A DNA stretch of 64,000 bases from an uncultured Gemmatimonadales bacterium (GTDB lineage Bacteria > Gemmatimonadota > Gemmatimonadetes > Gemmatimonadales > GWC2-71-9): assembly GCA_963717315.1 (NCBI GenBank), contig CAVQWA010000009.1, positions 720-64,719 on the forward strand, written 5' to 3'. The notes under the pieces were generated by a model. It had not been told where the DNA came from. It ran no database searches and saw nothing but the letters and a program-made list of their open reading frames with translations. Below are positions 20,316 through 40,585 of this stretch, piece by piece. Positions within the stretch are counted from its first letter, which is position 1; each line of letters starts with the position of its first letter. Both the position numbers and the translations under genes were made by a program.

Positions 20316-20662
20316 CGGTCACCTCATCCAAGGGAGACTGCTCAGCAACCCGCCGCTACGGGCGGTGCCGCTCGGTTTTGCAAGAGACAAGCCAATCCCA
20401 TCGGATAGAGATGGTCGCGGCCCCAATCTGGTAAGTCATTGCCACTAAATGCATTGACACGTGCCATGCGCCCAATTGCACCCGGTTCGCCCGGCGAGCC
20501 AAGCCCATCCGGCGACCGTTCCGCTCCACGCTGTGGCAACGGCGCACCAACAGTTGTCCGGCGGGGATCGCCGCCCCATTATGTGGCGGCGGCGCCGGTC
20601 CGGAAGGACCGGGGTTGGTGTCGCACTGCTGTCGCCGCCAATCACCCTCTGCCGGAGGCCCG

Positions 20663-23334: not shown

Positions 23335-25653
23335 CGCGTCCCTCCCTCGAAGCCCCGGAGCCTGAGGCTGTTGCTGACCACGCTGACCGAGCTGAACGCC
23401 ATCGCGGCGGAGGCGAGAATGGGGCTCAGCAGCAGGCCGAACGCCGGGTAGAGCACCCCCGCCGCCACGGGGATGCCGATCATGTTGTAGATGAGGGCCC
23501 AGAACAGGTTCTGGCGCATCGTCCCCATCGTGCGGCGTGAGAGCCCGAGCGCATCGGCGAGCGCGTGCAGGTCGTCGCGGAGCAGGGTGATGTCGGCGGC
23601 ATCCGCCGCCACGTCAGCGCCGGCGCCCATCGCCACGCCCACGTCGGCCTGGGCGAGCGCCGGCGCGTCGTTCACGCCGTCGCCCACCATCGCCACCACG
23701 CGGCCCTCGGCCTGGGCCCGCTTCACGTAGTCCACCTTGCCCTTCGGGCAGTACCTCGGACTCGACCGCGTCGATCCCCGCCTCGCGGGCGATCGCCGCG
23801 GCCGCGCCCCGGCGGTCGCCGGTGAGCATCGCCACCCGGAGGCCGAGCCGGTGGAGCCGCTCCACCGCAGCTCGGCTGGTCGGCTTGAGCCGGTCGGCGA
23901 GTGCGATGGCCCCGCGGGCCTTCCCGTCCACCGCCACCAGCACCGGCGTGGCGCCCGCCGCGGCAAACCGCTCGGCGGCCTCGAGCGCGCCGCCCGGCGC
24001 CACGCCCTCCGATTCGAGCAGCTTCGCGGTGCCCACCAGCACCCGCCGGCCGGCCACATCCCCCACCGCCCCGAAGCCGGCCCGCGCCTCGAAGCGCTCC
24101 GGTTCCGGCAGGTCCAGTCCGCGCTCCCCGGCCCAGGCGACGATGGCTCGGGCGAGCGGATGCTCCGAGCCGCGCTCGAGCCCCGCGGCAAGCCGTGCGG
24201 CCTCGTCATCGAGCTCGGCACCCGTCACCCGCGGCTTCCCCTCGGTGAGGGTGCCGGTCTTGTCGAGCACCACCGTATCCACGTCGGCCGCGCGCTGCAG
24301 CGGCTCGCCGCCCTTGATCAGGACCCCCAGCTCCGCGCCCCGGCCGGTGGCGACCATCACCGCCGTCGGCACCGCCAGGCCCATCGCACAGGGACAGGCG
24401 ATGATGAGCACCGCCACCGCGGCCGTGAGGGCGCGCACCGGGTCGTCGCCGATGATGGTCCAGGCCACGAAGGTGGCGACCGCGATCGAAACCACGGCCG
24501 GGACGAACACCGCCGAGATCCGGTCGGCCAGCCCCTGGATCGGCGCGCGCGATCCCTGCGCCTCGCGCATAAGCGCCACGATCCGGCCCAGCGCGCTGTC
24601 GGCGCCGAGGGCCGTGGCGCGGATCCGGATCGCGCCAGACTGATTGAGCGTGCCCGTGCTCACCCGGCTTCCCGGCGCCTTGTCCACCGGGATGCTCTCG
24701 CCGGTGAGCACCGACTCGTCCACCGCGCTCGTGCCCGAGAGCACCTCGCCGTCCACCGGCATCCGCTCGCCGGGCCGGACGAGGATCGTGTCGCCCCGCC
24801 GGACCTGGGGGAGCGGCACGGCCACCTCGCGGCCGTCGCGCACCACGGTGGCCTCGAGCGGCTGCAGCGCCGCCAGCCCGCGGAGCGCCTCGGCGGTGCG
24901 CCGCTTGGCCCGTGCCTCGAAGGCGTTCCCGAGGAGCACCAGCGCCACGATGATGATCACCGCCTCGTAATACACGTCCGGCGCCACGCCCCGGGCCGCG
25001 AACCACCCCGGCGCCAGCGTCACGGCGGCGGAGAAGAGGAACGCGGCGCCGGTGCCCACCGCCACGAGCGTGTCCATCGTGGCGGAGTGGTGCCGGAATG
25101 CGGCCCAGGCGTTGACGTAGAAATGGCGGCCGGCCCAGACCATTACCACCAGCGTGAGGGCGAGCAGCGTCCAGCGGAGGGCGCCGTGGGGAACGGCGTA
25201 GAGCCAGGGGATGGCGCCCCGGAGCGAGGGCTCGAGCGTCTGCATCACCCAGTTCATCACCGGGTCGGTGGAGCCGTGCGGCCCCGCGCCCATCAGGGGC
25301 ATCGAGAGCAGCATCGCCACCGCGCCGATGGCGAGGCTCACCAGGGAGCGGAACCGGAGCCGGTGGTACTCCTCCTCGCGCGAGCGATCCTGCGCCTCCT
25401 GCTCGTCGAAGGCGCTGCGCTCGGCGGAGGGGAGCTCGGCCTCGTACCCGGCGCTCCGGACCGTCTCCACCAGGGCCTCGGGGGAGACGGCCGCGGGGTC
25501 GAAGGCGACCGTCGCCTGCTCGGTCATCAGGTTCACGTTGGCGTCGCGGACGCCGGGGGCCTGCTGGAGCGCCTGCTGGACCCGGGCCTGGCAGGAGGCG
25601 CAGTGCATCCCGGTGACGGGGAAGGTGATCCGCTCCTCGGTGTGCGTGGTCAT
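23331..25653 (-). pseudogene. copA: Copper-translocating P1B-type ATPase CopA, reading frame broken by a single-base insertion
   Basis: HMA domain [11 protein letters not shown] motif ([11 protein letters not shown]) and DKTGTLT lie in the frame of ORF 23614..25653. [16 protein letters not shown] and the last TM helices lie in the frame of ORF 23331..24221. The switch is at ...EVLPEG|KVDYVK, where the coding strand reads GAAGGGCAAG instead of GAAGGCAAG (plus-strand CCC 23740-23742). Confidence 0.75.
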
Positions 25654-26040: not shown

Positions 26041-26090
26041 ACGACCCCCAGGGATGCCTGAGGGCCGAATCTATATACCCCCTCCCCCTA

Positions 26091-26124
26091 TGTCAAGCTC
26101 CGGGATCGAACGCGAGACCTCCTG
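26091..26124 (-). other. Decayed tRNA 3'-half-like fragment (anticodon-stem 3' strand, variable loop, T-arm)
   Basis: The minus strand reads CAGGAGGTCTCGCGTTCGATCCCGGAGCTTGACA. It matches 25 of 34 positions of the same part of tRNA-Ala at 35100-35133, including CAGGAGGTC and TTCGATCCCGG. The T-stem no longer pairs and no 5' half is present. Confidence 0.55.
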
Positions 26125-29008
26125 CTACGGGCTTCGAGCGGCGATGTCCCGCACCTCGGACGCCTGCCACAGCCCGTTGGGAGTCGGGACAGGAGGTAGC
26201 GGGCCAGTACTTGGTCTCGGCGACGGTACCCAAGGCGGTTGCCGGCCGCAGGTGAATCGTGCACTGCCCAGAGGGCTCCTCGATCACCGATGTCGCGACA
26301 ATCCTCCCTTCATCGCCGTGGAACGGGCCACCGAGCCGGACGCCCGGGACCAGGACATCCTGGTGCGGCCCGGTGATGGTCAGGGTGGAGTCCGCGTTCA
26401 CCGCCACCCGAAACTCGAGCAGGCGAGAACTCCACGGTCCGTTCGGAGCCCCGAGCCGCTCGAGCGCGACCAGCCGCGACCCGTCGGGGGAGAGGTCCCA
26501 CGCCGGCGTGGAGATCGGGGTGAACCGGGTGGACGCACCGGTCCGCAGGTCGAAGAGCAGCCCGTGGTAGAAGAGGTACCGCCCCTGGGGATGCAGGTGG
26601 ACGTCATCCGGCCAGACGTACGCCGCCCCGCCGGTCGAATCGGTCAGCAACACGGAGGAGAGCAGGCCCCCGGTGGCCTGGGAGTAGAGGTCAATGAAGT
26701 AGGCCGTGAGGGTCGGGCGCTGCAGGACGAAGACGTCGTCTCCGTCGAACCGCGCGGACTGGTTGTTCCAGGTCCGGAGCCGGGCCCCGAGCGGGTCAAA
26801 CGTCGCAACGGAATGATCGCGACCATTCAGTGAATCCTCGTTCAGGTGGACCGAAAGCTGCCGCCCCCCAGGCGCCACGGAGATCCTGGCCGGGTACCAC
26901 TGGGCGTGGGCAATAGGGGTGGTCCGCACGATCTCGAAATCCCGCAGCACGGAGAACGACACCGGGGGATTGGCGAGCACCTGCTGCCCGCAGAGGGGGT
27001 TGTCGCCCCGGTCCTGGGAAAGGAGCTGGAGGGCGCCGTAGGCATCAAGCTGGTACACCGGTTCCGGGAAACCCTGCACCGGCGTGCGGGGCACGAGCAG
27101 CCCCGTCACCGAGTCCCGGATCGCGACCCGGCTCCCGCGCTCCAGGTAGTCCACCAGCTGGGCCGGTGAGAGTGACGGGTCCCGCGCCAGGAGCAGGGCC
27201 GCGGTCCCGGCGACCAACGGCGCTGCGAACGATGTGCCATTCCCAAAGGCGAGCGTCCCTGTGGTCGTGGCGGCCCATACCCCCTTGGCAGGAGCCGCAA
27301 GGCCCGTATGGCCCAGGTAGAATCCCGAACCCACATTGCCATCGTCCCAGGCCACGTTGCCGGGCGACGTGCCCGCAACAAACAGGATGCGGTCGGCGTA
27401 TCCCGCGGCGCGAAGCTCCAGCAGAGCGCGATCCATGGCCGCACTGCGGATCGGCTGCGCCCGCAGGTTCGCCAGGCTCCGATTGAGCCGCTCATTGCCA
27501 GTTGTCTGAACCCAAAGCAAACCCGGGACGCTATCGAACAGTCTTGCGAGGCCCGCACGGAGGTATTCCACCGCGACCGTATCGTTGCTAAGACCGATCC
27601 CGATCGTGCTTACGACCACCCGGGGGGACTCGCCGGCCAATCGCGGGAGAATCCCGTTCACCAGTGCCGTCCCTGCCGTCCCGGTCTCGACATAGTTGCG
27701 GGCGCCGATGCCGAGTGCGCGCAACCGACCTCCCCAAACCATGCCGGCAATGCCCAGCATATTGTCTGCCCGGGAGCCCGCCAACGAAGCCACGGCCGCG
27801 GCATGGCCCACCCAGAAGAGTGAGTCGGCAGAGAGGCCGATCGTCCGTTGCTGGCTCGATACTTCCTGCCCCCCAGGCGGGAAGGGGACCCTTGCCGCAG
27901 AGTAATCCACCAGGTCCGGCGGGACGGCACTCGTGGGCACCTCGGCTTCGAGCAAGTGGATCGCGGGCGGAGCAGAACCTGGATACTGGCCGTTCTCGCA
28001 CGCCCAAGCCTGCGGCGCACGGATCGCAGAGGGCGCCCAGAGTTCGGCGACGCCGTCGATCCAGGCCTGCCTCGTGAAGCCACCATCAGAGGGGAATCTC
28101 CCGTCCACCCTTCCCACCCCACCGCGACGCGTCATCGGACCTGCGACCCGCACAATGGGTTCACCATGGAGTGAATCGAGGAGGGCTTTGACGTCCGTCC
28201 AAGTGGGCCCCGGATCGGGGAACCTGAGGATGAAGAGGCGGGCGAACGAACTCCCACCGGCGAGGCTCGCACCGTACTTCTCCAGCAGTGCGCGGAAGGC
28301 AGTTCCGTCCGCCTCCGGCCGGAGCCAGATGCCGATCATCCGCCGGTAGTAGTCGTAACCCGGCGCAAGCGAGTCCTCGATCACAAACAGGGATTCCGCG
28401 GCGAACGTCATCTGGTCGTGGATGATGGGCAGCGCCGAATCAGGCAGCTCCGCCCGGATCTCGAACGAGATCCTGGCCGCGGTGGTCTTGTTGGGCACGA
28501 TGAGTTGCAGCGTCCGGATCGGGGTCGAGTCGCCGGGGATCGTGCCCCCATTCTCGAGGAGAGTCCAGAATGCCGCACCGGCGTCCGCCCCACCGGCTCC
28601 CCCGACGCTGTCCGCGTTCGCTTCCACCACCCGTGCCGTGACGGTGCTCGGCGCCGTGACCACCCCCGAGTCCCTCGGCAGCACCACGAGGATCGGCGCG
28701 TCCCGCCCGCCCGGCCCCCGGTTCACCACCCGCACGGGGATGCTCACCTTCCGCTGGTTCTTGACGTACCCCACGGCCCCCGCGCCGACCAGCGCGAGCC
28801 CGGTGGCGCAGCCCGAGTCCGCGGCGAAACTGGCCTGGGCCGTGGTCCCCCCGACGATCTGCACGTGCACCCGGGTGCACGGGCCCGCCGAGCCGACGGC
28901 GAGCATCGGCGCGGGCCGCAGGGTGTCCTGCCGCGGGCCGATGGGATCGGGCCCGGTGCAGCTCAACGACCCCAGCAGCGAAATGAATCCGACGAGGCAG
29001 GTGGTCAT
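26093..29008 (-). CDS. Subtilase (peptidase S8)-like lipoprotein, tandem copy 1: signal peptide, Ig-like region, I9-like propeptide, S8 domain, beta-propeller-like C-terminus
   Basis: GGAGGG RBS 5 nt before ATG 29008. Signal MTTCLVGFISLLGSLSC. S8 blocks VGHAAAVASLAG (His), VQTTGNER (Asn) and GTSFAAPLVAGTAALLLARDP (Ser). The C-terminal tail is one base out of frame relative to copies 2 and 3 (extra base near 26181-26185). Confidence 0.85.
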   Translation of the reverse strand: MTTCLVGFISLLGSLSCTGPDPIGPRQDTLRPAPMLAVGSAGPCTRVHVQIVGGTTAQASFAADSGCATGLALVGAGAVGYVKNQRKVSIPVRVVNRGPGGRDAPILVVLPRDSGVVTAPSTVTARVVEANADSVGGAGGADAGAAFWTLLENGGTIPGDSTPIRTLQLIVPNKTTAARISFEIRAELPDSALPIIHDQMTFAAESLFVIEDSLAPGYDYYRRMIGIWLRPEADGTAFRALLEKYGASLAGGSSFARLFILRFPDPGPTWTDVKALLDSLHGEPIVRVAGPMTRRGGVGRVDGRFPSDGGFTRQAWIDGVAELWAPSAIRAPQAWACENGQYPGSAPPAIHLLEAEVPTSAVPPDLVDYSAARVPFPPGGQEVSSQQRTIGLSADSLFWVGHAAAVASLAGSRADNMLGIAGMVWGGRLRALGIGARNYVETGTAGTALVNGILPRLAGESPRVVVSTIGIGLSNDTVAVEYLRAGLARLFDSVPGLLWVQTTGNERLNRSLANLRAQPIRSAAMDRALLELRAAGYADRILFVAGTSPGNVAWDDGNVGSGFYLGHTGLAAPAKGVWAATTTGTLAFGNGTSFAAPLVAGTAALLLARDPSLSPAQLVDYLERGSRVAIRDSVTGLLVPRTPVQGFPEPVYQLDAYGALQLLSQDRGDNPLCGQQVLANPPVSFSVLRDFEIVRTTPIAHAQWYPARISVAPGGRQLSVHLNEDSLNGRDHSVATFDPLGARLRTWNNQSARFDGDDVFVLQRPTLTAYFIDLYSQATGGLLSSVLLTDSTGGAAYVWPDDVHLHPQGRYLFYHGLLFDLRTGASTRFTPISTPAWDLSPDGSRLVALERLGAPNGPWSSRLLEFRVAVNADSTLTITGPHQDVLVPGVRLGGPFHGDEGRIVATSVIEEPSGQCTIHLRPATALGTVAETKYWPATSCPDSQRAVAGVRGAGHRRSKPVAGGLAFDPGA

Positions 29009-29047
29009 CAGCCCTCCAGTGGGGAGACGACGAGGGTGCCCGGCGTC

Positions 29048-31942
29048 CTACATGCAAGAACTCGCAGCGGCGATGTCCCGCACCTCGGACGCCTGCCACA
29101 GCCCGTTGGGACCCGGGCAGGACGTGGCGGGCCAGAACCTGGTCTCGGCCACGGTACCCAAGGCGGTTGCCGGCCGCAGGTGAATCGTGCACTGCCCAGA
29201 GGGCTCCTCGATCACCGATGTCGCGACAATCCTCCCTTCATCGCCGTGGAACGGGCCACCGAGCCGGACGCCCGGGACCAGGACATCCTGGTGCGGCCCG
29301 GTGATGGTCAGGGTGGAGTCCGCGTTCACCGCCACCCGAAACTCGAGCAGGCGAGAACTCCACGGTCCGTTCGGAGCCCCGAGCCGCTCGAGCGCGACCA
29401 GCCGCGACCCGTCGGGGGAGAGGTCCCACGCCGGCGTGGAGATCGGGGTGAACCGGGAAGACGCACCGCTCCGGAGGTCGAAGATCAAGCCGCGGTAGAA
29501 GAGGTACCGCCCCTGGGGATGCAGGTGGACCTCATCCGGCCAGACGTACGCCGCCCCGCCGGTCGAGTCGGTCAGCAGCACGGAGGAGAGCAGGCCTCCG
29601 GTGGCCTGGGAGTACAGGTCGACGAAGTAGGCCGTGAGGGTCGGGCGCTGGAGGACGAAGACGTCGTCTCCGTCGAACCGCGCGGACTGGTTGTTCCAGG
29701 TCCGGAGCCGGGCCCCGAGCGGGTCAAACGTCGCAACGGAATGATCGCGACCATTCAGTGAATCCTCGTTCAGGTGGACCGAAAGCTGCCGCCCCCCAGG
29801 CGCCACGGAGATCCTGGCCGGGTACCACTGGGCGTGGGCAATAGGGGTGGTCCGCACGATCTCGAAATCCCGCAGCACGGAGAACGACACCGGGGGATTG
29901 GCGAGCACCTGCTGGCCGCAGAGGGGGCTGTCGCCCTGGTCCTGGGAAAGGAGCTGGAGGGCGCCGTAGGCATCAAGCTGGTACACCGGTTCCGGGAAAC
30001 CCTGCACCGGCGTGCGGGGCACGAGCAGCCCCGTCACCGAGTCCCGGATCGCGACCCGGCTCCCGCGCTCCAGGTAGTCCACCAGCTGGGCCGGTGAGAG
30101 TGACGGGTCCCGCGCCAGGAGCAGGGCCGCGGTCCCGGCGACCAGGGGCACCGCGAACGAGGTGCCGTTGCCGAATGCGAGCGTACCGTTGGTGGTTGCC
30201 GCCCAAACGTCCTCAGCAGGCGCCGCGATTGTGGTGTTACCGAGGTAGAAGCCAGAGCCTAAGCTAGGGCTTGTTCCCAGCCAGGCTGTGTTCCCAGGCT
30301 CGGTCCCGGCGACGAACAGGATGCGGTCGGCGAATCCCTGCGAACGAAGCTCCAGCAGCACCCGATCCATGGCAGCACTGCGGATCGGCTGCGTCTGGAG
30401 GTCCGCCAAGCTGCGATCTTGCCGCTCGTTGCCCGTGGTCTGGATCCACAGGAGGTCTGGAGTAGCCTCGAATAGCCGGCGGAGCCCAGTGCGGAGGTAA
30501 TCCACAACCGCGCTGTCGTTGCTCCACCCGATTCCGATCGTGCTCACCAGGACCCGCGGACCCTCGGCTGCGAGCAACGGGACGATGTAATTCACCAATG
30601 CGGTTCCGGCAGTTCCCGTCTCGACATAATTCCGAGCACCGAGCCCTACTGCGCGTACTCCGCCTCCCCAGACCATGCCGGCAATCCCAACTCCGTTATC
30701 AGCCCGCGAGCCCAGCAGCGAGCTGACCGCCGCAGCGTGACCGGCCCACGCCACGGAGTCCGCCGCGATATCGATCGTTCGCTGTGCACCCGACACTTCC
30801 TGCCCGGATGGAGGGAACGGGACTCTTGCGGCGGAGTAGCTGGCGAGGTCAGCCGGGACCGATCCCGAGGCCACCTCTGCTTCAAGCTGATAGACCAGGG
30901 GAGGGGTGGACCCGGAGTACCGGCCGTTCTCGCACCCCCAAGCCAGTGGGGCGCGAATCGCGAGCGCAGCCCACAAGCCAGGCGCTCGCTGAATCCACGA
31001 CTGCCTCGTGAACCCGCCGTCCGTGGGGTAACGCCCGTCCACTCTCCCCGGTCCTCCCCGGCGCGTCATAGGATATGCGACCTTCACGATTGGCTCGGCG
31101 TGAAGCGAATCCAGGAGGGCTTTCACATCGTTCCAAGTGGGGCCGGGGTCGGGGAACCGGAGGATGTAGAGTCCCACGAAATTGCTGCCTCCTGCAAGGC
31201 TGGCGTTGTACTTCTGTGCCAGCGCACGGAAGGCATCGCCGTCAGCCCCGGGATTCAAGCGCAGGCCGATCATCCGCCGGTAGTAGTCGTAACCCGGCGC
31301 AAGCGAATCCTCGATCACAAACAGGGATTCCGCGGCGAATGTCATCTGGTCGTGGATGATGGGCAGCGCCGAATCAGGCAGCTCCGCCCGGATCTCGAAC
31401 GAGATCCTGGCCGCGGTGGTCTTGTTGGGCACGATGAGTTGCAGCGTCCGGATCGGGGTCGAGTCGCCGGGGATCGTGCCCCCATTCTCGAGGAGGGTCC
31501 AGAATGCCGCACCGGCGTCCGCCCCACCGGCTCCCCCGACGCTGTCCGCGTTCGCTTCCACCACCCGTGCCGTGACGGTGCTCGGCGCCGTGACCACCCC
31601 CGAGTCCCTCGGCAGCACCACGAGGATCGGCGCGTCCCGCCCGCCCGGCCCCCGGTTCACCACCCGCACGGGGATGCTCACCTTCCGCTGGTTCTTGACG
31701 TACCCCACGGCCCCCGCGCCGACCAGCGCGAGCCCGGTGGCGCAGCCCGAGTCCGCGGCGAAACCGGCCGTGGCCGTGGTCCCCCCGACGATCTGCACGT
31801 GCACCCGGGTGCACGGGCCCGCCGAGCCGACGGCGAGCATCGGCGCGGGCCGCAGGGTGTCCTGCCGCGGGCCGATGGGATCGGGGCCGCTGCAGCTCAA
31901 CGACCCCAGCAGCGAAATGAAGCCGACGAGACAGGTGGTCAT
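29048..31942 (-). CDS. Subtilase (peptidase S8)-like lipoprotein, tandem copy 2 (divergent propeptide and protease core)
   Basis: Same architecture as copy 1. N-terminal ~226 aa and C-terminal ~370 aa are near-identical to copy 1. The central region is clearly diverged (AGHAAAVSSLLG, IQTTGNER, GTSFAVPLVAG). Confidence 0.9.
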   Translation of the reverse strand: MTTCLVGFISLLGSLSCSGPDPIGPRQDTLRPAPMLAVGSAGPCTRVHVQIVGGTTATAGFAADSGCATGLALVGAGAVGYVKNQRKVSIPVRVVNRGPGGRDAPILVVLPRDSGVVTAPSTVTARVVEANADSVGGAGGADAGAAFWTLLENGGTIPGDSTPIRTLQLIVPNKTTAARISFEIRAELPDSALPIIHDQMTFAAESLFVIEDSLAPGYDYYRRMIGLRLNPGADGDAFRALAQKYNASLAGGSNFVGLYILRFPDPGPTWNDVKALLDSLHAEPIVKVAYPMTRRGGPGRVDGRYPTDGGFTRQSWIQRAPGLWAALAIRAPLAWGCENGRYSGSTPPLVYQLEAEVASGSVPADLASYSAARVPFPPSGQEVSGAQRTIDIAADSVAWAGHAAAVSSLLGSRADNGVGIAGMVWGGGVRAVGLGARNYVETGTAGTALVNYIVPLLAAEGPRVLVSTIGIGWSNDSAVVDYLRTGLRRLFEATPDLLWIQTTGNERQDRSLADLQTQPIRSAAMDRVLLELRSQGFADRILFVAGTEPGNTAWLGTSPSLGSGFYLGNTTIAAPAEDVWAATTNGTLAFGNGTSFAVPLVAGTAALLLARDPSLSPAQLVDYLERGSRVAIRDSVTGLLVPRTPVQGFPEPVYQLDAYGALQLLSQDQGDSPLCGQQVLANPPVSFSVLRDFEIVRTTPIAHAQWYPARISVAPGGRQLSVHLNEDSLNGRDHSVATFDPLGARLRTWNNQSARFDGDDVFVLQRPTLTAYFVDLYSQATGGLLSSVLLTDSTGGAAYVWPDEVHLHPQGRYLFYRGLIFDLRSGASSRFTPISTPAWDLSPDGSRLVALERLGAPNGPWSSRLLEFRVAVNADSTLTITGPHQDVLVPGVRLGGPFHGDEGRIVATSVIEEPSGQCTIHLRPATALGTVAETRFWPATSCPGPNGLWQASEVRDIAAASSCM

Positions 31943-31981
31943 CAGCCCTCCAGTGGGGAGACGACGAGGGTGCCCGGCGTC

Positions 31982-34872
31982 CTACATGCAAGAACTCGCA
32001 GCTGCGATGTCCCGCACCTCGGACGCCTGCCACAGCCCGTTGGGCTCGGGACACGACGCAGCGGGCCAGAACCTGGTCTCGGCCGACGGTACCCAAGGCG
32101 GTTGCCGGCCGCAGGTGAATCGTGCACTGCCCAGAGGGCTCCTCGATCACCGATGTCGCGACAATCCTCCCTTCATCGCCGTGGAACGGGCCACCGAGCC
32201 GGACGCCCGGGACCAGGACATCCTGGTGCGGCCCGGTGATGGTCAGGGTGGAGTCCGCGTTCACCGCCACCCGAAACTCGAGCAGGCGAGAACTCCACGG
32301 TCCGTTCGGAGCCCCGAGCCGCTCGAGCGCGACCAGCCGCGACCCGTCGGGGGAGAGGTCCCACGCCGGCGTGGAGATCGGGGTGAACCGGGTGGACGCA
32401 CCGGTCCGCAGGTCGAAGAGCAGCCCGTGGTAGAAGAGGTACCGCCCCTGGGGATGCAGGTGGACGTCATCCGGCCAGACGTACGCCGCCCCGCCGGTCG
32501 AATCGGTCAGCAACACGGAGGAGAGCAGGCCCCCGGTGGCCTGGGAGTAGAGGTCAATGAAGTAGGCCGTGAGGGTCGGGCGCTGCAGGACGAAGACGTC
32601 GTCTCCGTCGAACCGCGCGGACTGGTTGTTCCAGGTCCGGAGCCGGGCCCCGAGCGGGTCAAACGTCGCAACGGAATGATCGCGACCATTCAGTGAATCC
32701 TCGTTCAGGTGGACCGAAAGCTGCCGCCCCCCAGGCGCCACGGAGATCCTGGCCGGGTACCACTGGGCGTGGGCAATAGGGGTGGTCCGCACGATCTCGA
32801 AATCCCGCAGCACGGAGAACGACACCGGGGGATTGGCGAGCACCTGCTGGCCGCAGAGGGGGCTGTCGCCCTGGTCCTGGGAAAGGAGCTGGAGGGCGCC
32901 GTAGGCATCAAGCTGGTACACCGGTTCCGGGAAACCCTGCACCGGCGTGCGGGGCACGAGCAGCCCCGTCACCGAGTCCCGGATCGCGACCCGGCTCCCG
33001 CGCTCCAGGTAGTCCACCAGCTGGGCCGGTGAGAGTGACGGGTCCCGCGGCCAGGAGCAGGGCCGCGGTCCCGGCGACCAACGGCGCTGCGAACGATGTG
33101 CCATTCCCAAAGGCGAGCGTCCCTGTGGTCGTGGCGGCCCATACCCCCTTGGCAGGAGCCGCAAGGCCCGTATGGCCCAGGTAGAATCCCGAACCCACAT
33201 TGCCATCGTCCCAGGCCACGTTGCCGGGCGACGTGCCCGCAACAAACAGGATGCGGTCGGCGTATCCCGCGGCGCGAAGCTCCAGCAGAGCGCGATCCAT
33301 GGCCGCACTGCGGATCGGCTGCGCCCGCAGGTTCGCCAGGCTCCGATTGAGCCGCTCATTGCCAGTTGTCTGAACCCAAAGCAAACCCGGGACGCTATCG
33401 AACAGTCTTGCGAGGCCCGCACGGAGGTATTCCACCGCGACCGTATCGTTGCTAAGACCGATCCCGATCGTGCTTACGACCACCCGGGGGGACTCGCCGG
33501 CCAATCGCGGGAGAATCCCGTTCACCAGTGCCGTCCCTGCCGTCCCGGTCTCGACATAGTTGCGGGCGCCGATGCCGAGTGCGCGCAACCGACCTCCCCA
33601 AACCATGCCGGCAATGCCCAGCATATTGTCTGCCCGGGAGCCCGCCAACGAAGCCACGGCCGCGGCATGGCCCACCCAGAAGAGTGAGTCGGCAGAGAGG
33701 CCGATCGTCCGTTGCTGGCTCGATACTTCCTGCCCCCCAGGCGGGAAGGGGACCCTTGCCGCAGAGTAATCCACCAGGTCCGGCGGGACGGCACTCGTGG
33801 GCACCTCGGCTTCGAGCAAGTGGATCGCGGGCGGAGCAGAACCTGGATACTGGCCGTTCTCGCACGCCCAAGCCTGCGGCGCACGGATCGCAGAGGGCGC
33901 CCAGAGTTCGGCGACGCCGTCGATCCAGGCCTGCCTCGTGAAGCCACCATCAGAGGGGAATCTCCCGTCCACCCTTCCCACCCCACCGCGACGCGTCATC
34001 GGACCTGCGACCCGCACAATGGGTTCACCATGGAGTGAATCGAGGAGGGCTTTGACGTCCGTCCAAGTGGGCCCCGGATCGGGGAACCTGAGGATGAAGA
34101 GGCGGGCGAACGAACTCCCACCGGCGAGGCTCGCACCGTACTTCTCCAGCAGTGCGCGGAAGGCAGTTCCGTCCGCCTCCGGCCGGAGCCAGATGCCGAT
34201 CATCCGCCGGTAGTAGTCGTAACCCGGCGCAAGCGAATCCTCGATCACAAACAGGGATTCCGCGGCGAATGTCATCTGGTCGTGGATGATGGGCAGCGCC
34301 GAATCAGGCAGCTCCGCCCGGATCTCGAACGAGATCCTTGCCGCGGTGGTCTTGTTGGGCACGATGAGTTGCAGCGTCCGGATCGGGGTCGAGTCGCCGG
34401 GGATCGTGCCCCCATTCTCGAGGAGAGTCCAGAATGCCGCACCGGCGTCCGCCCCACCGGCTCCCCCGACGCTGTCCGCATTCGATTCCACGACGCGTGC
34501 CGTGACGGTGCTCGGCGCCGTGACGACGCCCGAGTCCCTCGGCAGCACCACGAGGATCGGCGCGTCCCGCCCACCCGGCCCCCGGTTTGCTACTCGCACG
34601 GGGATGCTCACCTTCCGCTGGTTCTTGACGTACCCCACGGCCCCCGCGCCGACCAGCGCGAGCCCGGTGGCGCAGCCCGAGTCCGCCGCGAAACTGGCCT
34701 GGGCCGTGGTCCCCCCGACGATCTGCACGTGCACCCGGGTGCACGGGCCCGCCGAGCCGACGGCGAGCATCGGCGCGGGCCGCAGGGTGTCCTGCCGCGG
34801 GCCGATGGGATCGGGGCCGCTGCAGCTCAACGACCCCAGCAGCGACATGAAGCCGACGAGGCAGGTGGTCAT
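31982..34872 (-). pseudogene. Subtilase (peptidase S8)-like lipoprotein, tandem copy 3, interrupted by two single-base insertions
   Basis: The N-terminal 2/3 is in ORF 32908..34917 and the C-terminal 1/3 in the frame of ORF 31374..33422. There is an extra G at 33049/33050 (GGTCCCGCGGCCAGG against GGTCCCGCGCCAGG in copies 1 and 2). There is an extra base at ~32085 (GGCCGACGG against GGCCACGG or GGCGACGG). With both removed, the ORF ends ...ASSCM* at 31982. Confidence 0.75.
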
Positions 34873-35099
34873 CAGCCCTCCGGTCGGGAGACGGCGAGGG
34901 TGCCCGGCGTCCGACATGCAAGAACTCGCAGTCGTGGGTGGAAGGGAGGCGCAAACTGGCTCCCGGCCACGATAGCGGATTCAGGGGGGGCACAACCCAT
35001 CAAGCGTGACAGGGTCCGAATGGCGCCCGAAGCCGTCGCGGGTGGAGGCCTTCCCCGCCGCGAGTGGCAGGGGGAGCGGTCGGAGGGGGAAATGCGGCA

Positions 35100-35172
35100 T
35101 GGAGCGTACCGGGATCGAACCGGTGACCTCCTGGTTGCAAACCAGGCGCTCTCCCAGCTGAGCTAACGCCCC
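35100..35172 (-). tRNA. tRNA-Ala (anticodon TGC)
   Basis: Minus strand GGGGCGTTAGCTCAGCTGGGAGAGCGCCTGGTTTGCAACCAGGAGGTCACCGGTTCGATCCCGGTACGCTCCA. It folds as a cloverleaf with a 7-bp acceptor stem carrying the G3:U70 Ala identity pair, anticodon loop TTTGCAA and T-loop TTCGATC. CCA is not encoded. Confidence 0.95.
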
Positions 35173-40364: not shown

Positions 40365-40585
40365 TGCTCCACTGCCTCCAGAAAGTCGAATAGAGTCCGC
40401 TGCCACCGCGCTCCCAGCCGCGACCCGGATGCTCCGGCCCCGCCGGTGAAGAGCGGCCCAAGTATAAGGGCGGAGGAGTCGAAAGGCGAGTCGGCCGTGG
40501 GTGGTCGCGCCGCGGGCACCCACCTATTTTCCGTCCGCAGCCGGAGCCGTGGCTCCGCGAGTTCTCCCCTCCCCGGAGCCGTGTC

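Follow-up and report, generated by a model that had tools for sequence, protein, structure and literature searches.

A tandem protease array beside a tRNA-Ala gene

The stretch of DNA analysed here, referred to throughout as the window, comprises 64,000 nucleotides (nt) of contig CAVQWA010000009.1 from an uncultured Gemmatimonadales bacterium (assembly GCA_963717315.1), and all positions are counted from its first letter. It contains a tandem array of three genes for a subtilase-like, lipoprotein-type protease, designated c1, c2 and c3, of which c3 is the nearest to a tRNA-Ala gene and c1 the farthest from it. Direct-repeat families and alignment placed the repeated array at 26137-34931 on the minus strand, as three head-to-tail units with a start-to-start period of 2928-2935 nt in the repeat families. 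Each unit consists of a leader of about 57-59 nt with a GGAGGG ribosome-binding site (RBS), followed by one gene of about 962 amino acids (aa), and the gene starts, at 29008 (c1), 31942 (c2) and 34872 (c3), were assigned by homology. From the stop of one gene to the start of the next the spacers measured exactly 39 nt (29009-29047 and 31943-31981), and the leader, common to all three genes, ended in ...CCACTGGAGGGCTG-ATG. The array is bounded at 26137, where the 3' end of c1 (...GACATCGCCGCT) diverges from the c2 and c3 sequence, and at 34931, where the c3 leader diverges from the c1/c2 junction sequence. Unique upstream non-coding DNA was present at c3 only, extending 168 nt past the repeat; the distance from the c3 gene to the tRNA is 227 nt. 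This layout agrees with the original prediction, made from the letters of the window, of three minus-strand units of about 2.93 kilobases (kb) set head to tail, with 39-nt spacers, a GGAGGG leader of about 59 nt in each unit and a real upstream non-coding stretch of about 170 nt at c3 alone.

Copy number of the gene in related genomes

The downstream flank of the array carries a cupredoxin gene and a copper P-type ATPase gene, and the upstream flank a divergent MocR-like aminotransferase regulator. Comparison contigs of relatives are designated L001-L004, L010 and L050-L054, and homologous proteins carry P numbers. The ATPase was 89% identical to that of the Gemmatimonadales metagenome-assembled genome L010, which is collinear with the window on both sides of the site at 85-87% nt identity (85-89% over the flanks) and has an empty site, consisting of tRNA-Ala, about 80 nt and the cupredoxin promoter, with no protease gene between. 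A single gene between tRNA-Ala and the cupredoxin promoter was found in L003 and L004, while L001/L002 and L053 showed the c3-type upstream flank, a single gene and the c1-type downstream flank. The single-copy relatives keep the ancestral 3' ends (stop after ...AARSP or AARGP) and have no junction sequence. In L054 (positions 1-2128, Logan ERR13093741) tRNA-Ala is followed by a 457-aa remnant without catalytic domain and then by the cupredoxin gene. In that remnant the constant N module is followed first by a propeptide of type D and then by a second, ELPDSALP-propeptide module of a different type (module types are described below), after which a deletion reaches to the cupredoxin promoter. 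It has the appearance of a ruined array, formerly multi-copy or recombinant.

Related genomes compared for copy number thus hold one copy, a degraded remnant (L054) or none (L010), and the triplication, in which one novel junction occurs twice against single copies in L001-L004 and L053 and none in L010, is specific to this genome among those sampled. The recent amplification that had been predicted is supported by the flank-to-flank single-copy contigs (L001/L002, L003, L004 and L053) and by the identity of c1 and c3 over about 1.7 kb. The window probably records a real, recent and strain-specific tandem amplification, from one to three copies, of an accessory S8 lipoprotein-type gene housed in a ~3-kb islet at tRNA-Ala.

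Close homologues were rare, numbering a handful among 5.8 billion proteins. The N-terminal module returned no relatives from the GTDB species genomes and JGI metagenome contigs, and the conserved leader, used as a DNA pattern against metagenome contigs, gave 91 matches, all of them chance matches and none protease-encoding.

Mosaic relation of the three copies

A three-way alignment revealed that the copies follow the order A-B-A by their central module. Over the first ~720 nt of the genes every pair was 93-100% identical. In the next ~1.1 kb, which covers the propeptide-like part of the protein and its catalytic core as far as the Ser motif, c1 and c3 were 100% identical and c2 shared 61-78% with either of them; over the last ~1 kb every pair was again 94-100% identical, save for the final ~100 nt (~91%), where indels are located. 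The 100% identity of c1 and c3 extends over ~1.7 kb in all. Variable sites were laid out in tracts, with 380 sites of the pattern c1=c3≠c2, 30 of c1=c2≠c3 and 15 of c2=c3≠c1, and the synonymous divergence (dS, Nei-Gojobori) between c1 and c2 reached 1.49 in the central module, compared with 0.02 and 0.08 in the N and C modules. The array therefore holds two deeply diverged catalytic-module alleles, and the three near-identical paralogues of the original prediction are not found, given the 61-78% identity of the c2 central module and the 380 sites private to c2. With two such alleles present, variation fits better than pure dosage as the outcome of the amplification. The identity of c1 and c3 indicates that the last step of expansion was very recent.

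The copy-to-copy junction and a proposed history of the duplication

At the junction, ...GCCGCT, located 12 nt before the ancestral stop (...AARSP-stop), is joined to GCGAGTTC..., located about 57-59 nt upstream of the ATG, with a microhomology of only CT/GCT (2-3 nt) at the join. The resulting junction, with the k-mer GCCGCTGCGAGTTCTTGC, was found twice in the window, with one single-nucleotide polymorphism (SNP) between the two occurrences, and not in the single-copy strains. Since both junctions are the same, a single illegitimate event followed by unequal crossing-over would account for them. The stop that ends c2 and c3 (...SSCM-TAG) lies within the duplicated leader (TAG at 29048-29050 and 31982-31984); the same leader position reads TAT in the single-copy strains and TCG in the c3 leader (34912-34914). 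Because the 39-nt spacer amounts to 13 in-frame codons, consecutive copies would fuse if this TAG were read through. As both internal leaders carry the TAG, the stop seems to have been acquired after the duplication and before the third copy arose.

From the anatomy of the array the following history may be inferred. An illegitimate join at a microhomology of 2-3 nt, between a point 12 nt before the stop and one ~59 nt before the start, would have produced the first duplicate, and the TAG in the duplicated leader would now terminate the upstream copy. Unequal homologous crossing-over would then have supplied the third unit, and gene conversion or allelic exchange, between the copies and with the alleles of other strains, would have generated the A-B-A mosaic, in which the 5' ~720 nt and the 3' ~1 kb have presumably been homogenised and the central module kept as two alleles whose synonymous divergence is near saturation.

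Table 1. Positions of the features at the protease locus
Feature	Position	Strand	Description
c1, type-A central module	26093..29008	-	Open reading frame (ORF) of 971 aa as assembled
c2, type-B central module	29048..31942	-	Intact ORF, 964 aa
c3, type-A central module	31982..34872	-	Frameshifted as assembled; 962 aa once two bases are removed
c1 leader and c2/c1 junction	29009..29067	-	...ATCGCCGCT/GCGAGTTCTTGCATGTAG...; c2 TAG stop, 39-nt spacer, GGAGGG RBS
c2 leader and c3/c2 junction	31943..32001	-	Matches the c2/c1 junction bar one SNP (ATCGCAGCT/GCGAG)
Unique upstream non-coding region, tRNA-Ala to c3	34873..35099	-	Presumed place of the sole promoter
tRNA-Ala(UGC)	35100..35172	-	3' end towards the array; presumed integration target (attL side)
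Degenerate copy of tRNA-Ala positions 39-64	26100..26124	-	22/25 nt; directly after the ancestral c1 stop
Sigma-70-like promoter TTGACA-17-TAGATT	26068..26096	-	Serves the cupredoxin and copper P-type ATPase genes; start of the conserved chromosomal flank
Hypervariable central module (residues ~225-600 in c1; propeptide-like region and S8 core to the Ser motif)	c1 27217..28330; c2 30145..31264; c3 33081..34194	-	

Reading frames and reliability of the assembly

As assembled, c2 is the only cleanly intact copy. In c3, an additional C at about 33050, just past the Ser motif, leads to a stop at 32908, and a second additional base, a G, is located at about 32084; in c1, one additional base at about 26183 alters the last ~30 codons, so that the reading frame continues to a TGA at 26093-26095 instead of the TAG expected by homology at 26125-26127. 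The prediction that each unit encodes a full product does not hold for this assembly, in which c3 is shifted twice and the tail of c1 once. With the extra bases removed, products of 960-962 aa collinear with c2 are obtained. Similar lesions affect conserved genes of the window. The copper P-type ATPase gene (23614-25653, minus strand) has a frameshift at 23744 caused by an extra A (GAAGG instead of GAGG) and encodes 679 aa, compared with 786 aa in L052 and an open frame of 815 codons in L010, and further 1-nt frameshifts relative to L010 or L052 orthologues, near 40417 and 20650, truncate conserved genes. The occurrence of 1-nt frameshifts in conserved housekeeping genes means that those in the protease genes may be assembly errors too, and the indels of the window resemble, as this suggests, errors of long-read assembly.

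An error-prone assembly raises the question of the array itself, which might have been over-expanded, or strung together chimerically from strain variants, when a truly single-copy locus was assembled from a metagenome, probably with long reads. The frameshifts at 23744, near 40417 and near 20650, the 100% identity of c1 and c3 over ~1.7 kb and the finding of at most one copy in every other sampled strain are all compatible with such an artefact. We nevertheless consider it very improbable. The junction is foreign to the single-copy strains, so that a chimera of strain variants would not make it, and its two occurrences differ by a SNP; each copy carries private substitutions, c3 has a unique upstream flank and c1 a unique downstream flank, and the in-frame TAG gained at the junction points to a biological history rather than to mis-joining.

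The same lesions, taken at face value, would fit decaying accessory DNA, that is, a neutral or transient by-product of recombination whose copies are heading to pseudogenes, with no benefit from dosage or variation. The two frameshifts of c3 and the one of c1, the 457-aa wreck without catalytic domain that is all L054 keeps, the complete absence of the gene from a related species (L010) and an atypical codon usage could be read in this manner. All three indels, however, are single-base gains, both of those in c3 lengthen runs of a base, and like indels occur in essential-looking genes; besides the indels there are no stops, each module has a ratio of non-synonymous to synonymous divergence (dN/dS) of 0.1-0.4, and no allele has lost the catalytic His, Asn or Ser. 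Decay is thus an unlikely account.

Allele classes between strains

Six alleles were aligned for the comparison of modules. A sharp change was observed at about residue 195, where identity drops at the motif ELPDSALP. Across residues 1-195 the alleles shared mostly 94-100% identity, which fell to 72-90% in the final ~95 of these residues for the pairs that diverge most. The central module (about residues 200-605) fell into at least four classes, namely A (c1 and c3), B (c2 and L053), C (L003) and D (L004), with identities of 22-48% between distant classes, and that of L001 was an A/B mosaic. Two classes were distinguished in the C-terminal module, class I in the window, L001 and L053, and class II in L003 and L004 (88-98% mutual identity), and breakpoints were visible, for example in P0004, which passes from class-I-like to class-II-like near residue 650. 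Between strains, dS was 0.24-0.42 in the N module, which was taken as the genomic background, and 1.1-3.2 in the central module, where dN/dS was 0.12-0.39. The dN/dS values of 0.1-0.4 found in every module indicate that the alleles are maintained as working proteins. Judged from these alignments, the variable modules would be either far older than the strains or imported from elsewhere, and under purifying selection. The pattern fits a cassette-like allelic exchange in which the constant 5' part and the downstream flank may serve as homology arms: the constant part would comprise the leader and residues 1 to ~195 (signal peptide with putative lipobox, and beta-sandwich), and recombination would reassort the protease module (at least four classes) and the C-terminal all-beta module (two classes). 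No reverse transcriptase or recombinase ORF, as a diversity-generating retroelement or a shufflon would call for, was present among the flanking ORFs listed and scanned.

The depth of the A/B divergence is also an argument for an array much older than proposed here, arising from an ancient A/B duplication, with the N and C modules converted since then, two different catalytic modules preserved by selection and the other copies lost from the single-copy relatives. A central dS between c1 and c2 of about 1.5, compared with 0.02-0.08 in the N and C modules, the conversion-like tract patterns among the copies, the B-module dS of 0.33 between c2 and L001, which equals the background and is consistent with long residence in the lineage, and the two different propeptide modules of the L054 remnant, which hint at a former multi-copy array in another strain, would all fit such concerted evolution. 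It is, in our view, improbable: a single copy with the ancestral 3' end intact and no junction is found in four to five independent relatives, the final expansion at least was very recent, as the identity of c1 and c3 requires, and the single-copy locus also carries A- and B-like segments as alternative or mosaic alleles (L001).

The tRNA-Ala islet and its base composition

In L001 (2985-3073) a perfect 27-nt copy (27/27) of the tRNA-Ala 3' end was found right after the stop codon, followed by GGTCGAAGG-type short tandem repeats like those located after the tRNA in the empty site of L010 (9369-9400). A degenerate form of this repeat was present in the window (26124-26100, 22/25 nt) and in L053, and absent in L003 and L004; that of the window is interpreted as an attR-like remnant, which would mark the distal edge of the islet. 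The gene is thus accessory, the cargo of an islet of ~3 kb at the tRNA-Ala 3' end that bears classic traces of integration. The locus resembles tRNA-targeted islands in its insert 3' of the tRNA, in the direct repeat of the tRNA 3' end at its far edge, in the empty site of a relative and in its atypical composition. It differs from them in its small size (~3 kb), in its one cargo gene and in the absence of an integrase, recombinase or other mobility gene, the islet holding the protease gene(s) only. The profile of the protease clade had no match among IMG/VR viral contigs, and the islet thus finds no support as phage cargo.

The GC content of the array was 0.683, compared with 0.733 in the rest of the window, and GC content at third codon positions (GC3) was 0.82 in the array genes, compared with a mean of 0.94 for ten other genes. 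These profiles bear out the qualitative impression, recorded beforehand, that the array uses more A/T-containing codons than its flanks. By module, GC3 was 0.92 in the N module, 0.75 in the central module and 0.86 in the C module, the A/T dip being located mainly in the central module.

Domains, active site and family of the protein

The Pfam profile Peptidase_S8 (PF00082) matched c1 with 37.5 bits and c2 with 36.7 bits, above a cut-off of 21.8, in a weak match that omitted the Asp region. A profile of the family compared with the structures of the PDB retrieved subtilases at an E value of about 1e-22; this alignment set the clade's VGVlE against VAVLDTG of the subtilases and matched the H, N and S motifs correctly. 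The AlphaFold2 (AF2) model of c2 (predicted local distance difference test, pLDDT, 75.6; predicted template modelling score, pTM, 0.65) comprised a beta-sandwich (residues 40-190), a beta-alpha-beta-beta-alpha-beta unit (219-295), an alpha/beta domain (313-668) and an all-beta domain (678-940), in which DxSPDG-like motifs are visible. Foldseek against the PDB gave a probability of 1.0 to fervidolysin (1r6v), EpiP (3qfh) and subtilisins, the best matches being pro-subtilases, including pro-subtilisin E (3whi), so that residues 313-668 of the model are assigned the subtilisin alpha/beta fold. The subtilase-like nature of the product, as predicted, is supported by both the S8 match above cut-off and the pro-subtilase matches. 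The predicted domain layout stood in part: the S8 domain and a signal-peptide-like N-terminus with Cys17 were recovered, whereas the I9 propeptide, the Ig-like region and the PD40-type propeller had no Pfam match (I9, PF05922, not even at E<=1) and correspond only to the layout given by AF2 and Foldseek. These three labels are probably broadly right as descriptions of a predicted structure, and not as family memberships. The N-terminus, MTTCLVGFISLLGSLS-C17, is signal-peptide-like with an n-region without positive charge and an atypical position -3; many clade members have canonical L-x-G-C lipoboxes.

Exhaustive searching with HMMER yielded 916 cluster representatives, of which 134 had E<1e-30. 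Most were ~1000 aa long, with 30-37% identity over an alignment that spanned residues 1-730. In an alignment of 24 sequences of the clade, His402 and Ser595 were invariant, Cys17 was at least 90% conserved, and the acid position was either D or E. All the alleles of the locus kept the His, the oxyanion Asn (GN motif) and the Ser, and carried Glu354 at the position of the catalytic Asp (in c2 at about 30881-30883 of the window), as does about half of the wider clade. The clade may be a natural Glu-His-Ser variant of the subtilases in which the carboxylate is retained. We regard the protein as a weak but genuine S8 subtilase of an uncharacterised clade of ~1000-aa putative lipoproteins. It shares with the subtilases (MEROPS S8/PF00082; 1r6v, 3qfh and 3whi) the fold, the pro-region in front and the His, oxyanion Asn and GTSxAxP Ser motifs, and differs from them in the Glu for Asp, the putative lipobox, the beta-sandwich of ~150 aa and the C-terminal all-beta domain of ~260 aa. 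No curated NCBIfam family covers the protein, the contexts of the distant clade members L050 and L051 showed no informative conserved neighbours, and nothing relevant was found in the literature on subtilisin lipoproteins of Gemmatimonadota. Many distant members of ~1000 aa (P0009, P0016, P0018, P0019, P0025, P0073 and others) share a C-terminal end, ...R-V-Q-V-N or V-Q-A-N, which might be a sorting or anchoring signal and is absent from the proteins of the array locus.

Other assignments were considered and rejected. The anti-phage system IetS/IteS was discarded on the IteS score (10 bits against a cut-off of 900), and type VII mycosin on a match of 35 bits against 279, confined to the Ser-motif region. 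The PADLOC defence assignment was a generic subtilase match of 30 bits, and the dentilisin and PatA assignments were generic Ser-motif matches in NCBIfam and PADLOC. CdiA-CT and the myxobacterial SitA lipoprotein toxins are examples of polymorphic surface or toxin loci in which a constant N-terminus precedes variable sequence. By analogy, the array locus would resemble them in its constant N-terminal module, its diverged, recombining parts and its strain-variable state; it differs in having no immunity gene and no toxin domain, in a variable protease that keeps its catalytic residues and in a dN/dS below 1. A polymorphic-toxin system, or one like that of contact-dependent inhibition (CDI), was rejected because in every strain the stretch from the gene to the cupredoxin promoter is free of ORFs and the variable part is the protease itself. 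With no immunity gene and no score at family level, both the toxin and the defence readings fail.

Expression of the array

A scan for promoters and terminators found none between the copies, in the 39-nt spacers, and no sigma-70 consensus upstream of c3. The sole sigma-70-like site of the scan, TTGACA-17-TAGATT, belongs to the downstream copper genes, and in L010 it adjoins the tRNA. In the DNA between c3 and the tRNA, the ~130 nt nearest the gene show conservation in every strain, and the ~100 nt next to the tRNA vary. Rfam applied to 25-36 kb returned the tRNA alone, indicating no known riboswitch or leader RNA. It is plausible from this arrangement that the genes form a single operon transcribed from the region upstream of c3, in which case the copies would be co-transcribed and, if all frames are intact, two distinct protease isoforms would be displayed on or outside the cell envelope. 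A poly-C tract at 34990-34998, within the conserved portion of this upstream DNA and ~120 nt before the start codon, varied from 7 to 9 C across the window, L001, L003, L004 and L054, which makes it a candidate for slippage with a possible effect on expression. The c1 stop as assembled (26093-26096) overlaps the -35 hexamer of the cupredoxin/copper ATPase promoter with no terminator between, so that transcription of the array could run into the copper-resistance genes.

Meaning of the amplification

Several points weigh against a recent amplification of an islet-borne, working gene. With c3 and the tail of c1 frameshifted, the array may give just one or two full-length proteins, and if the frameshifts are real the idea of an amplification "for function" is weakened. 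The c2 B module had a dS of about 0.33 to its closest relatives, L001 and L053, a value equal to the background, and was therefore not recently imported from those lineages. As no integrase is present, the evidence for the history of integration consists of the repeats and the empty site only. The single-copy status of the relatives comes from short metagenomic contigs, in which an assembler could collapse identical copies, though both unique flanks are present. No promoter was identified upstream of c3 to back the putative operon.

Tandem arrays of secreted proteases are known from other bacteria. The spl operon of Staphylococcus aureus encodes the serine proteases SplA-F on the nuSa-beta island, with SplD and SplF 94.6% identical (PMC5061998). 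The array described here resembles it in its tandem secreted serine-protease paralogues, its accessory island and its strain-variable copy number (PMC5061998), and differs in kind and age: the Spl proteins are small S1 enzymes of chymotrypsin fold in an old, species-wide array, whereas here putative S8 lipoproteins of ~960 aa form module mosaics in one sampled genome. The KLIKK proteases of Tannerella forsythia form an array that is absent from a close relative and combine a shared, near-identical terminal module with differing catalytic parts (PMC4404884). Both the absence from a close relative and the common module joined to differing catalytic parts recur in the present locus. In KLIKK, however, the shared module is C-terminal, several peptidase clans are represented and a small lipoprotein gene precedes each protease gene, whereas in the array the constant module is N-terminal, the catalytic modules all belong to S8 and partner genes are absent. 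The locus belongs to neither of these two systems.

A more far-reaching and doubtful possibility is that the locus is a cassette-exchange system for a surface protease of an undescribed Glu-His-Ser subtilase clade, with the lipid-anchored N module as both stalk and homology arm, and with strongly divergent modules for the protease and the propeller swapped between strains, and in this genome stacked, under frequency-dependent selection. Were this so, the drivers might be escape from recognition of the protein by phages or predators, or a strain-specific attack on the envelope proteins of competitors, and the A-B-A array would express two specificities at once.

Amplifying an accessory gene for a secreted protease in tandem is a well-known way to gain dosage or diversity, and in this respect the core finding is unsurprising and ordinary in kind, with no bearing on any long-standing open question. 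Its boundary at about residue 195 is unusually sharp, background divergence abutting saturated dS, which would imply either long-term maintenance of alleles or repeated import. The uncharacterised clade of putative S8 lipoproteins, with hundreds of representatives of ~1000 aa and an alternation of Asp and Glu, should be of interest to protease biochemists. Finally, the locus provides a natural series at one site, which is empty in one genome, occupied by a single copy with alternative alleles in others, tripled in the window and reduced to a remnant in L054, and which shows the turnover of a small tRNA-adjacent islet.

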